Part shown: positions 41,168 through 47,150 of the stretch, piece after piece | Position numbering within the stretch: position 1 is the stretch's first letter | Layout of the letters: each line of letters opens with the position of its first letter | Source of the DNA: Deltaproteobacteria bacterium | Lineage (GTDB): Bacteria > Myxococcota_A > Polyangia > Polyangiales > Houyiibacteriaceae | DNA length: 64,000 nucleotides | Assembly (NCBI GenBank): GCA_034670305.1 | Contig: JAXMNT010000031.1 | Span: 1 to 64,000 of the forward strand | Direction of reading: 5' to 3' | Notes under the pieces: generated by a model | Told to the model about the DNA's origin: nothing | The model's input: only the letters and a program-made list of their open reading frames with translations | Databases searched by the model: none | Translations under genes and position numbers: made by a program

Positions 41168-41490
41168 GAGGGGCCGAAGCCGAGGGGCCGAAGCCCGAAG
41201 CCGACAGCGACGCCGAAGCCGAAGCCGACGCCGAAGCCGACGGCGACGCCGACGCCGAAGCCGACGCCGAAGCCGAAACCGACGCCGAAGCCGAAGCCGA
41301 CGCCGAAGGCGACGCCGAAGGCGACGCCGAAGGCGACGCCGAAGGCGACGCCGAAGCCGATGCCGAGAACCGACGCCGAGAACCGATGCCGAGAACCGAT
41401 GCCGAGAACCGATGCCGAAGACCGATGGCGTAGAACCGACGCCGAAAACCGATGCGACGCTGACGCCGAAGCCGAAAACCGATGCCGACG
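41168..41490. repeat. Intergenic hexamer array (GAAGCC/GACGCC)n followed by 13-bp GCCGAGAACCGAY units
   Basis: Same hexamer family as 12036-12283 but in opposite orientation. Lies between divergent purF and HupE genes. Confidence 0.9.
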
Positions 41491-41541: not shown

Positions 41542-42651
41542 ATGAAGTTTCGACGCAACCGTGTGGGGTCGGTGTGGCTCGCATCGGCGTTGCTGGCGGC
41601 GGTGCTCGCAGTGCTCGTGCCCTCCGTGACGGCGCATGCGCACCTCGGCAGCCGCAAGTACGTCCGGGTGGAACCGGGGCAGGGTGGGGCGGCGGTGGAG
41701 GTGGAGGTCGAGGCGGTGGATGCGTCCATGCAGCTCGATCTCGGCGAGGACGTCGACCTCGACGCACTGCGCGCCCGCGCACCCGCCATCAAGCAGTGGC
41801 TCTCGCAGGGCATCGCGCTCACGTCGGAGGGTGGGGACTGCACCGTGGAGGCTGGGGACCCGGAGATGACGGTGCGGGACGAGACGCCCTTCGTACGGGT
41901 GATGCTCCAGTTCAGCTGTCCCAGTCAGGAAGGGCTGGTGCTGACCGACGACACCATCTTCCCGGACGACGTGCAGCACGAGGCGATGGTGCGCATCGCG
42001 TTCGGCGCCGACGAAGACGCGCACGTGTTGCGGCGCGGCAGCCGCGAGCTCCCGATCGAACCCGTCTCGGCGATGACGGTCGCGGGCACCTTCCTGTGGG
42101 AGGGGGTGCTTCACTTCGCGCTCGGGTTCGACCACGTCCTGTTTCTGCTCTCGCTCGTGCTGGCCGCCGGGTTCGTCAGCCGCAAGGAAGGCGTCAAGCG
42201 CGCGCTGCGCGATGTGGCCATCCTGGTGACGGCGTTCACGCTCGGACACAGCGTCACGCTGATCGCGGCGGCGCTGCAGTACGTGGTCTTACCGTCGCAG
42301 CCCGTCGAAATCGTCATCGCGGCATCGATCGCAGTCGTCGCCGTGATGAACATCGTGCGCCCCGAACACCGCGGCGCGCTGCCCTGGCTCGCGGGCGGAT
42401 TCGGGTTGATCCACGGCTTCGGGTTCTCCTCGGTGTTGGCCGAGCTCGGTTTGCCGGCGGAGCAGAACGTCCTGGCGCTCGTGTGTTTCAACGTCGGCAT
42501 CGAGCTGGCGCAGCTCGCCTTCGTCGCCATCGTGATGGGCCCCATCGCGTGGGCGGCCAAACAGTCCGGCTACAAACGGTTCGTCCAGGTCGCATCCGCG
42601 CTCATCGGCCTCCTCGCATTGTTCTGGGTCGTCGAACGCGTGATGGGCTGA
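41542..42651 (+). CDS. HupE/UreJ family membrane protein with an N-terminal soluble domain
   Basis: Signal ending [46 protein letters not shown]. Confidence 0.9.
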
Positions 42652-42654
42652 GGC

Positions 42655-44805
42655 GTGCGCAGTCGCTGGTTCCACGTTCCGCTGCTCCACTCGCACGGGG
42701 CCCTCGAGAAGAAGGTCACGTGGCTCGAACTCTTCTACGACCTGATCTTCGTCGCCGCGTTCATCCAGCTCGGCAACGGCCTCTCCGAGCACGTCGACGG
42801 CACCGGCGTGCTCGTGTTCTGCGGTGTGTTCGTCCCGCTCTGGACCGCGTGGACCGGTTTCACGTTCTTCGCGAACCGGTTCACGGTCGACGACATCCTG
42901 CACCGCGTGATGGTGTTCCTGCAGATGTTCGCGGTGGGCGGCATGGCGTTGTCCGCGCCGGAGGTTCTCCGCGGACAACACGTCCCCTTCGCACTCGCGA
43001 CGGCCGGCGCCCTCTTCATCATCGCGCTGCTGCACTACCGGGTGCATCAGCAAACCGAAGAAGGGCGGGACTACTGCTTCTTCTGGGGCGGCGTGTTCCT
43101 CGTGAGTTCGATCGGCTGGCTCGCCAGTGCGTTCGTGATGGCGCACATCGCCTACTGGATCTGGGCGGGCGCGACCGTGACCATCCTCGGCGCCCCGATG
43201 CATCGGCGGTCCCGCGAACTCGCGGAGCGCTACCCGATCGACTTCGAACACCTCGGTGAGCGCTACGGCCTGCTCACCCTGATCGTGCTCGGCGAGTCCT
43301 TCGTGAAGGTGCTCTCGCTGCTGGCCGCGGAGGGCGCGGGGCTCGATGTCTACGCCCAGGCCGCCGTCGTTCTGCTCGTCACGTGCGGCGTCTGGTGGGT
43401 CTACTTCGACGATGTCGCCGGCGCGCACGTGCGCAAGGGGCCGGCCAAGTGGGTCGTGTGGCTCTACGCGCACCTGCCCCTGCAAGCGGCGATCGTGGCC
43501 ACCGGCGTGGCCCTCAAGAAGGCGGTGCACTTCACCTGGGACGAGCCGGCCGGCGCAGGCTACCGGTGGCTGCTCGCAGGGGCGGTCGCGCTGGTGTTCT
43601 TCGCGGTCGCCATGGTGGACTCGGTCACCGAGCGGAAGTCGGCGGAGCTGAGCGATCGGGCCCGGATCAACGTGCGCTGGATCAGCGGCGTGTTGCTTCT
43701 CGTGCTGGCGCCCGCGGGCAACCTGATGAGCGGGGGGCTGTTCTTGGCCCTGCTCACGGGCGTGGTCATCACCCAGGTGATCCTCGACGTCGCGATGGCG
43801 CCGTTCGAGGAGAACGAGCACTCCGAGGAGCGCCTCGGCGCCCGGTCCCTGGCGGACCGAGTCCAGTCCGGCGAAGCCCTGCCGGTCCGCCGCGATCTGA
43901 CCGAGTCCGTGCGCAAAGGCACCCCCTCGGCGATGCGGCGGGATCTCTACTTCTATTTCATGGAAGGCAGCTGGGGACGCATCTTCGTCGCGTTCTTGAT
44001 CGTGTTCCTGGTGACCAACATCTTCTTCGGGGCGCTCTACGCGCTCGAGCCGGGGGCCGTCGCGGGCGTCGATACGTTTGGAGACGCGTTCTTCTTCAGC
44101 GTGCAGACGATGTCGACCATCGGCTACGGCGCGCTCTCTCCGGAGACTGCGTATGGCAACGCGGTGGTCACGGCGGAGGCGGCCATCGGCATCATCGGGG
44201 TGGCCATCGTCACTGGGCTCGTGTTCGCCAAAGCATCCCGCGCGACCTCGTCGGTGCTCTTCAGCAACGTGGTCACGATCCACACCCACCACGGCAAACC
44301 GACGCTCAGCTTTCGCGCGGGCAACGCCCGGGGCAACGAGGTGGTGGATGCGACGGTCAGCATCACGCTGGTCAAAGACGTGATGACACCGGAGGGGCTG
44401 CACCTGCGGAAGCTCTTCGATGTGCTGCCGACGCGGGCTCGGTCCCCACTCTTCGTGCTCAGCTGGCAGATCATGCATCCCATCGAAGGGGACAGTCCGT
44501 TGATCGACGTCGACTGGGATGCGCCGGAAGGACAGATCATCGCGCTCATCGTGACGATCATGGGGCACGACGGGACCTACGCGCAGACGATCCACGCGCG
44601 CCACACGTACTACCCGGAGGACTTCCGGGTCGGCCACCGTTTCGTCGACGTGATCAGCCAGCTCGACGACGGCCGGCTGCAAGTCGACTACGGCGCGTTC
44701 CACGACACCACTGCGCTTCCCACAGACAGCACTGCGCTTCCCACAGACAGCACTGCGCTTCCCAAAGACAGCACCGAGGGGACCGTGCGTCCCGAGGAGG
44801 AGTAG
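42655..44805 (+). CDS. Fusion of LtrA (low temperature requirement A) membrane domain and KirBac-type inward-rectifier K+ channel
   Basis: N-terminal VTWLELFYDLIFV and HLGERYGLLTLIVLGES (LtrA). C-terminal DLY, FFFSVQTMSTIGYG filter, FRAGNARGN, LSWQIMHPIEGDSPL (Kir). One continuous frame. Confidence 0.9.
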   Translation: MRSRWFHVPLLHSHGALEKKVTWLELFYDLIFVAAFIQLGNGLSEHVDGTGVLVFCGVFVPLWTAWTGFTFFANRFTVDDILHRVMVFLQMFAVGGMALSAPEVLRGQHVPFALATAGALFIIALLHYRVHQQTEEGRDYCFFWGGVFLVSSIGWLASAFVMAHIAYWIWAGATVTILGAPMHRRSRELAERYPIDFEHLGERYGLLTLIVLGESFVKVLSLLAAEGAGLDVYAQAAVVLLVTCGVWWVYFDDVAGAHVRKGPAKWVVWLYAHLPLQAAIVATGVALKKAVHFTWDEPAGAGYRWLLAGAVALVFFAVAMVDSVTERKSAELSDRARINVRWISGVLLLVLAPAGNLMSGGLFLALLTGVVITQVILDVAMAPFEENEHSEERLGARSLADRVQSGEALPVRRDLTESVRKGTPSAMRRDLYFYFMEGSWGRIFVAFLIVFLVTNIFFGALYALEPGAVAGVDTFGDAFFFSVQTMSTIGYGALSPETAYGNAVVTAEAAIGIIGVAIVTGLVFAKASRATSSVLFSNVVTIHTHHGKPTLSFRAGNARGNEVVDATVSITLVKDVMTPEGLHLRKLFDVLPTRARSPLFVLSWQIMHPIEGDSPLIDVDWDAPEGQIIALIVTIMGHDGTYAQTIHARHTYYPEDFRVGHRFVDVISQLDDGRLQVDYGAFHDTTALPTDSTALPTDSTALPKDSTEGTVRPEEE
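44709..44775 (+). repeat. 21-bp tandem repeat x3 (CACTGCGCTTCCCACAGACAG) in the channel C-terminal tail
   Basis: Encodes (TALPTDS) x3, with one T-to-K change. Confidence 0.9.
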
Positions 44806-46914: not shown

Positions 46915-46932
46915 GCGGAGCTGCAGCCGTCG

Positions 46933-47150
46933 GGATCGGCATCGGCATCGGCATCGGGATCGGCATCGGCTTCGGCTTCGGCGTCGGCATCGGCGTCGGC
47001 GTCGGCTTCGGCATCGGCATCGGCTTCGGCGTCGGCTTCGGCGTCGGCTTCGGCGTCGGCTTCGGAAGCGGCCACAGCCCCGCCCCTCACCCAGAGGGCA
47101 AGGGCAAGGGCACGGGCAAGGGCACGGGGGGAGAAGTCTTCGACTTCTCC

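Follow-up and report, generated by a model that had tools for sequence, protein, structure and literature searches.

A maintained bacterial gene fusion joins a KirBac potassium channel module to an LtrA domain with a predicted TMEM175-like fold

We analyzed a 64,000-nt stretch of DNA from a Deltaproteobacteria bacterium (GenBank assembly GCA_034670305.1, contig JAXMNT010000031.1, positions 1 to 64,000; hereafter the window), in which one forward-strand gene, at 42655..44805 (+), encodes an LtrA domain followed by an inward-rectifier potassium channel (Kir) module of the bacterial KirBac type. This fusion is old and maintained, with both modules complete and under the constraint typical of their families, and its LtrA domain is predicted to adopt the fold of the TMEM175 cation channels. 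LtrA (PF06772, short for low temperature requirement protein A) is a family of bacterial and fungal membrane proteins whose phenotype-based name dates back to the 1990s, and we know of no mechanism proposed for it so far. We favor, tentatively, a reading in which a Kir K+ pore and pairs of LtrA domains acting as TMEM175-like cation pores are united in one protein.

The gene is a single open frame with a GTG start, encoding 716 aa followed by a stop, and it is delimited by the reading frame, the Pfam domains and contigs from four public sequencing runs. The GTG start is supported by the fusion relatives, because they open with the same MRxRWFHxPxLH. Pfam places LtrA at residues 20-372 (42712..43770, +; E 8.5e-69 and 232.9 bits, the curated cut-off being 31.9; full length, with 1-352 of the 356 model positions covered), Ion_trans_2 at residues 450-524 (44002..44226, +; E 1.3e-10) and IRK_C (PF17655) at residues 534-692 (44254..44730, +; E 2.1e-22, model positions 1-163 of 174). 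An earlier model-generated reading of the letters (the original prediction) had described a 716-aa frame with a full LtrA region, a charged linker and a complete KirBac, a description that the open reading frame, Pfam and the KirBac alignments match exactly.

By its alignments, the C-terminal stretch of 300 residues is a complete KirBac inward-rectifier module. Among the sequences of solved structures, residues 416-713 align to KirBac1.1 (7swj/1p7b) at E 1.8e-57 and residues 430-685 to KirBac3.1 at E 2.7e-55, and the aligned region takes in the N-terminal segment, slide helix, pore helix, filter, inner helix and IRK_C. The elements of a Kir channel are all present: two helices around a pore helix with T-x-G-Y-G, a slide helix and IRK_C. 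The selectivity filter TIGYG (residues 488-492; 44116..44130, +), within the Ion_trans_2 pore domain, corresponds to TVGYG in KirBac1.1 and TIGYG in KirBac3.1, and the N-terminal segment with the slide helix (residues 416-440; 43900..43974, +) aligns to KirBac1.1 residues 36-60 and is conserved in 44 aligned fusions. A different KirBac architecture was also seen in one protein, P0298 (533 aa), where a histidine kinase (HisKA + HATPase_c) is fused at the C-terminus of the KirBac module.

The N-terminal 380 residues are likewise a complete LtrA that retains every residue invariant in stand-alone LtrAs, the window sequence matching all 35 invariant columns of the LtrA alignment. A core set (W23, E25, D29, W66, D80, R84, R129, H199, R203, W248, Y250, F251, W269 and H273) is invariant in the 44 fusions and also in the alignment that includes 27 stand-alone LtrAs. 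LtrA also recurs in another combination, with a C-terminal zf-UBP zinc finger in proteins of ~500 aa total (P0285, P0335, P0339 and P0356).

The two modules are joined by a stretch that is variable between two conserved ends. In the 44 aligned fusions, the end of the twelfth transmembrane helix (TM12) is conserved as QVxFDxxMAP, with Pro383 invariant, and the Kir module begins with a conserved VRKGxPxxLRRDLYFYFMEGSW, while the ~30 residues between them (about 384-413 in the window protein; 43804..43893, +) are rich in charge and vary in both length and sequence. The gap between the LtrA and Kir domain envelopes has a median of 26 residues, and the linker resembles a tether more than a stiff connection. 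With 12 helices, a basic N-terminus and a basic loop between TM6 and TM7, both ends of the LtrA domain would lie in the cytoplasm; a cytoplasmic LtrA C-terminus would therefore meet the need of the Kir module for a cytoplasmic N-terminus.

The original prediction had called for a search for independent occurrences of this architecture, and these proved numerous. A search of 5.8 billion clustered proteins returned 474 matches among 8000 candidates scored, and the best 120 of the 474 all combine LtrA, IRK_C and Ion_trans_2, at 50-63% identity and lengths of 637-760 aa; 1.84 billion representatives clustered at 50% identity yielded at least 20 full-length fusions (688-724 aa) down to 36% identity. 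Complete fusions make up 186 of the 364 proteins that we examined, and most of the 41 classed as partial are truncated fusions. In a sample of 401 genomes of the window's phylum, a full-length fusion in one frame occurs in 36 genomes (the window genome included; 37 matches, as one genome has two) spread over 15 family codes, and in seven further genomes the fusion is fragmented or shows frame changes, bringing the total to 43 of 401. The LtrA model is found in 56 of these genomes, 43 times as the fusion and 13 times in stand-alone or other form, such that in the sampled phylum LtrA mostly occurs fused to Kir. We take the fusion to reflect a functional link because the best 120 relatives share the architecture and 43 of the 56 LtrA-bearing genomes carry it. 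In the window genome itself (7.9 Mb; completeness 96%), the fusion supplies the sole LtrA and the sole Kir match, and no match to TMEM175 was found.

Beyond the phylum sample, 20 of 73 loci returned from species-representative genomes are full-length fusions, all from metagenome-assembled genomes (MAGs) and none from a cultured isolate. Their labels include Polyangiales, Polyangiaceae, Kofleriaceae, Sandaracinus, Bradymonadales, Bdellovibrionales and 'delta proteobacterium', a few further labels look like mis-binning, and Oligoflexia MAG labels are attached to some of the fused proteins. In a FastTree phylogeny of 270 Kir modules, a single branch (local support 99) separates all 186 fused modules, in the company of 9 of the 84 that are not fused, from the rest; a quick IQ-TREE search on 78 rows gives the same split with one more non-fused module on the fused side and a Shimodaira-Hasegawa-like approximate likelihood-ratio (SH-aLRT) support of 91, below the star at 95. 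The LtrA tree similarly places all fused domains on one side with 17 of 53 non-fused domains (support 100). Both trees are unrooted and a gain cannot be told from a loss in them, and the pattern fits one ancient fusion followed by diversification, with a few later splits or fragments.

Three Kir proteins of 635-662 aa (P0257, P0255 and P0251), nested among the fused Kirs, carry an N-terminal domain of ~360 residues that the Pfam LtrA model does not recognize; in P0257 there is a faint DLLYGLIILGMIQAG echo of LtrA TM1, and this domain looks like a degenerating LtrA module. In the 401-genome sample, the fusion holders and the 24 TMEM175 holders share no genome, an observation on small numbers of related genomes, and in one genus of the window's family code TMEM175 was found in 8 of 11 genomes and the fusion in 0 of 18 sampled.

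The proposal that LtrA is itself a channel-type module comes from its predicted structure. An AlphaFold2 model of residues 1-395, built from a 50-sequence alignment, has a mean predicted local distance difference test (pLDDT) score of 92.2 and a predicted template modeling (pTM) score of 0.90, with the five models spanning 90.9-92.2. It consists of 12 long helices in two groups of six that form parallel repeats, repeat 1 with TM1-TM6 (residues 23-192; 42721..43230, +) and repeat 2 with TM7-TM12 (residues 197-381; 43243..43797, +). When the model was compared with the PDB by Foldseek, human TMEM175 took ranks 1-7, with template modeling (TM) scores of 0.59-0.68, probability 1.00 and ~11% identity; from rank 8 onward, TM scores were only 0.11-0.26 and no transporter or ATP-binding cassette (ABC) fold scored. 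VIA-align, an exhaustive alignment of the model to 48,161 representative chains that is independent of Foldseek, paired residues 21-388 of the model with human TMEM175 (6w8n_A) at Z 25.9 and a root-mean-square deviation (rmsd) of 4.6 A over 339 aligned residues. For the cyanobacterial CmTMEM175 (5vre_A), 160 residues aligned on repeat 1 at Z 14.9 and an rmsd of 2.7 A, and MtTMEM175 (6hd8_B) scored Z 11.3, the best unrelated chain reaching Z 9.3. Since helical bundles give a background of up to about Z 13-14 according to the tool's own note, the match to human TMEM175 lies well above background.

Conservation within the family points to the same helices. Across 239 LtrA sequences, TM1 (3.22 bits) and TM7 (2.83 bits), the first helices of the two repeats, are the most conserved. 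TM1 opens at its cytoplasmic start with WLELFYD (42721..42741, +), compared with RLEAFSD in TMEM175 proteins of the same phylum, and a non-significant hhalign alignment of the N-terminal half sets the two motifs on each other in register. The VIA-align alignment, which starts with model residue 21 on residue 33 of the human chain, matches that register if the motif of human TMEM175 lies where we take it to lie. The original prediction had remarked that LELFYD recalls the TMEM175 helix RLEAFSD, a resemblance borne out at the level of the fold, as the LtrA model matches TMEM175 structures alone. The LtrA domain is thus modeled with the TMEM175 fold, and LtrA and TMEM175 probably share a distant common origin. 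In the accessible part of the review PMC10216561, prokaryotic TMEM175 proteins are described as single six-helix repeats that form tetramers and mammalian ones as two repeats that form dimers; TM1, which shows the highest conservation, lines the pore, as does TM7, RxxxFSD stands at the start of TM1, and the constriction is formed by Ile46 and Ile271.

The two most conserved LtrA helices, TM1 and TM7, parallel those lining the pore in TMEM175 as far as that source describes it (PMC10216561). We propose that the gene product would be one membrane protein made of two ion-channel-type modules. The Kir modules would tetramerize into a canonical K+ pore, with TM12 of each LtrA domain leading through a flexible tether of ~30 residues into the Kir N-terminus. 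Each tetramer would bring together four LtrA modules, which would form two dimers of the TMEM175 kind; in either dimer TM1 and TM7 would line a central path, and the dimers would conduct monovalent cations (K+ or H+) by themselves. The resulting assembly, with a rectifying K+ pore and leak pores of the TMEM175 type at fixed stoichiometry, would serve K+ and membrane-potential homeostasis; by extension, stand-alone LtrAs would be TMEM175-like cation channels. A more specific version, in which LtrA is a deeply diverged two-repeat branch of TMEM175 and the fusion a three-pore complex with Kir flanked by two LtrA-dimer pores, seems to us possible but less likely than not.

Several observations weigh against our favored reading. 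The LtrA fold is a prediction and not an experimental structure, and sequence comparison does not detect it: the Pfam TMEM175 family (PF06736) has no match at E<=10 to either LtrA half, hhalign of LtrA against TMEM175 returns probabilities of 1.9% for the whole domain and 3.9% and 2.6% for the halves, 239 LtrA domains against 20 TMEM175 sequences give 3.3%, a comparison of one LtrA half with the other finds no match (0.4-0.9%), and a 28-sequence LtrA profile finds 0 matches at E<=10 among PDB sequences. The RxxxFSD motif is not intact in LtrA TM1, where W replaces R and the F and D are kept (WLELFYD); TM7 has the invariant R203 followed by F/L-T and lacks the Asp, and a conservation-profile scan left its register against TMEM175 TM1 unfixed. 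Going by how the aligned ranges are shifted (model residue 21 against chain residue 33) and not by a residue-level superposition, the small residue Ala34 (+/- one residue) would fall at the Ile46 constriction site. The variable linker argues against tight coupling to the Kir gate. Finally, one relative (genome G362) has a frame change in the linker, and the P0257 lineage, although nested among the fusions, keeps Kir with a degenerate N-terminal domain, from which it follows that the two modules need not always act as one chain. With no family match and hhalign probabilities under 4%, we do not class LtrA as a member of the Pfam TMEM175 family, and a search of the ESM Atlas gave no usable match.

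It is quite possible that LtrA does not conduct and instead acts as a sensory or regulatory membrane domain (for lipid, temperature, pH or voltage) or as an assembly scaffold. It would then influence gating of the Kir pore by way of the N-terminus and slide helix, much as an S1-S4 domain or the TMD0 of SUR on Kir6 does, and the position of LtrA directly upstream of the slide helix, a known gating element of Kir channels, is suited to this. The altered TMEM175 motif and the apparent loss of the isoleucine constriction in LtrA also favor a non-conducting role, as does the mismatch in symmetry between a Kir tetramer and a TMEM175-type dimer, and the retention of a degenerate 360-residue membrane domain before Kir in the P0257 lineage is what would be expected if bulk or anchoring matters. 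Against a non-conducting role, however, LtrA keeps all residues that are invariant in stand-alone LtrAs, which work without Kir, a variable tether with a median of 26 residues would be a poor transmitter of conformational change, and the sole structural relatives of the LtrA model are channels.

We consider it improbable that LtrA is a transporter or membrane enzyme that shares its helix arrangement with TMEM175 and was fused to Kir for co-localization, for example for coupled K+/H+ or K+/metal handling. This possibility draws on the chemistry of the domain, since E25, D29, R75, D79, D80, H83, R84, H199, E202, R203, D252 and H273 are invariant at the cytoplasmic face and so many charged and histidine residues exceed the needs of a simple hydrophobic pore. 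It also draws on two neighboring genes: an Na+/H+-exchanger-family gene lies 3 nt upstream in one of 10 stand-alone LtrA loci, and the window has a HupE/UreJ metal-transporter-like gene whose end lies 4 nt upstream of the fusion. Yet the structural match, which aligns 339 residues at Z 25.9 and has both repeats in place, far exceeds the helical-bundle background, no transporter fold scored in Foldseek (TM scores <=0.26 from rank 8 onward), and the neighbors are not conserved. The window gene in question (41542-42651, 369 aa, HupE/UreJ_2-like with a ~180-residue N-terminal extension) is not a conserved partner and its 4-nt spacing is local, as neither HupE/UreJ nor any other shared neighbor was found at 11 other fusion loci (0/11). 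The 10 stand-alone LtrA loci share no neighbors among themselves either. At one of them (L121, G389:C716), the LtrA gene stands 3 nt downstream of the Na_H_Exchanger-family gene, which is the only ion-transport neighbor among the 10.

That an assembly, frameshift or gene-calling error merely joined two neighboring genes is scarcely credible and, for the window locus, is refuted: despite frame changes in 3 of the ~43 fusion-bearing genomes (in the linker in G362 and inside LtrA in G386 and G106), four separately assembled runs agree on an unbroken sequence, 36 genomes of 15 family codes hold the fusion in one frame, and 186 of the 364 proteins examined are fused at full length. The original prediction had asked for a read check of the junction, and the assembled contigs speak in its favor, as in each of the four public runs (4/4) one 3350-nt contig spans 42500-44738 with 0 differing letters and 0 gaps, crossing the junction with no stop or frameshift, and all sampled words of the fusion gene are present in the four runs. 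These runs belong to one study, possibly the source of the window, and exclude an assembly slip without being independent biology; independent support for the fusion comes from the other genomes, because they carry the same single frame.

The contig graphs of the four runs break only at 44709-44759, at a 21-nt tandem repeat (44693..44774, +) whose four copies encode a C-terminal tail of the TALPTDS type that is absent in relatives; given these breaks, the copy number of the repeat may vary. The frame changes in the other genomes differ in kind. At L111 (G362:C3:43700-46900), a one-base frame change falls in the variable linker, with the LtrA frame running on to an out-of-frame stop and a 299-aa Kir frame beginning at a GTG, the codon for the conserved Val in VRxGxP..RRDLY; either the locus has split naturally to give two proteins or its sequence is in error. 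One frame change inside the LtrA part in L112 (G386) and two in L113 (G106) mark these loci as either pseudogenes or assembly indel errors.

Around the fusion gene, a scan for promoters and terminators gave nothing above shuffles, and there was no RNA run among the runs with the gene, which says nothing on expression. Hexanucleotide arrays flank a three-gene block consisting of the HupE-like gene, the LtrA-Kir fusion and a gene for a TSP3-repeat protein. The first array, (GCCGAA/GCCGAC)n at 41173-41490, has about 51 copies and the second, (TCGGCA/TCGGCT)n at 46930-47128, about 23; both are intergenic, are approximately reverse complements of each other and yield long spurious open reading frames.

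The original prediction was not aware of any description of the fusion, which holds within the literature that we searched but not for the proteins themselves, since public databases already contain hundreds of fusion proteins under the names 'low temperature requirement protein A' or 'inward rectifier potassium channel'. In that literature, which did not extend to subscription journals, we found no paper linking LtrA or 'low temperature requirement' to TMEM175, no relevant paper, as judged by listings, linking LtrA to an inward rectifier or Kir, and, in work on KirBac architecture and TMEM175 relatives, nothing on an LtrA-Kir fusion or the LtrA fold; by title and abstract, the papers naming LtrA or PF06772 are genome or expression surveys. 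What appears to be new here is an LtrA model with the TMEM175 fold, a likeness that sequence profiles leave undetected. The fusion had already been taken as a hint that LtrA proteins act in ion transport, and the fold match supplies a second, independent line of evidence, such that two lines now converge: the TMEM175 fold and the conserved fusion to a bona fide K+ channel. LtrA thereby moves from 'function unknown' to a first testable hypothesis of mechanism. If our favored reading is true, the fusion would unite two unrelated K+-channel folds in a single chain, something rarely met in nature. The fusion would also place a predicted two-repeat TMEM175-type fold in bacteria, for which PMC10216561, in its accessible part, describes single-repeat forms only. 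A KirBac with a built-in partner further offers a handle on the poorly understood physiology of KirBac channels.

Set beside known systems, the fused Kir module is like KirBac1.1 and KirBac3.1 (PDB 1p7b, 7swj and 1xl4) in all its parts, with a filter of the form T-I/V-G-Y-G. The known KirBacs, however, are stand-alone proteins of 301-333 residues, whereas the fusion has ~415 residues (12 helices and the tether) before Kir, and its Kir modules form a branch of their own. On the LtrA side, stand-alone LtrAs of ~390-400 residues, such as that of Halobacteriovorax marinus SJ, are 36-48% identical to the window LtrA. The founding LtrA, that of Listeria monocytogenes, for which the available part of PMC5491136 cites only a cold-growth phenotype (Zheng and Kathariou), belongs to the same full-length family, and the window LtrA differs from it by its fusion to a K+ channel.

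The best-known complex of a Kir tetramer with four large membrane-embedded partners is the Kir6.x/SUR (KATP) octamer, and a tetramer of the fusion protein would resemble it in this respect, as the original prediction pointed out. SUR, in contrast, is a separate ABC-transporter polypeptide with nucleotide-binding domains, whereas LtrA is covalently joined at the Kir N-terminus, and no ABC domain or fold was found in the fusion by the Pfam scan or among structural matches of the LtrA model. We do not favor a passive accessory domain of the Kir6/SUR kind, because LtrA, as modeled, looks like a channel module. The closest structural comparison is with TMEM175 itself (human 6w8n and 9vsq; bacterial 5vre and 6hd8): the LtrA model shares the fold, has two parallel six-helix repeats like the human protein and accommodates the single bacterial repeat on its repeat 1, and in both families conservation is highest in the helix that opens each repeat and a related motif stands at the cytoplasmic start of TM1. 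LtrA nevertheless has no significant sequence or profile similarity to TMEM175, is missing the Arg of the TM1 motif and apparently does not keep the isoleucine constriction, and whereas bacterial TMEM175 is single-repeat and tetrameric according to the accessible part of PMC10216561, LtrA would represent a two-repeat form in bacteria.

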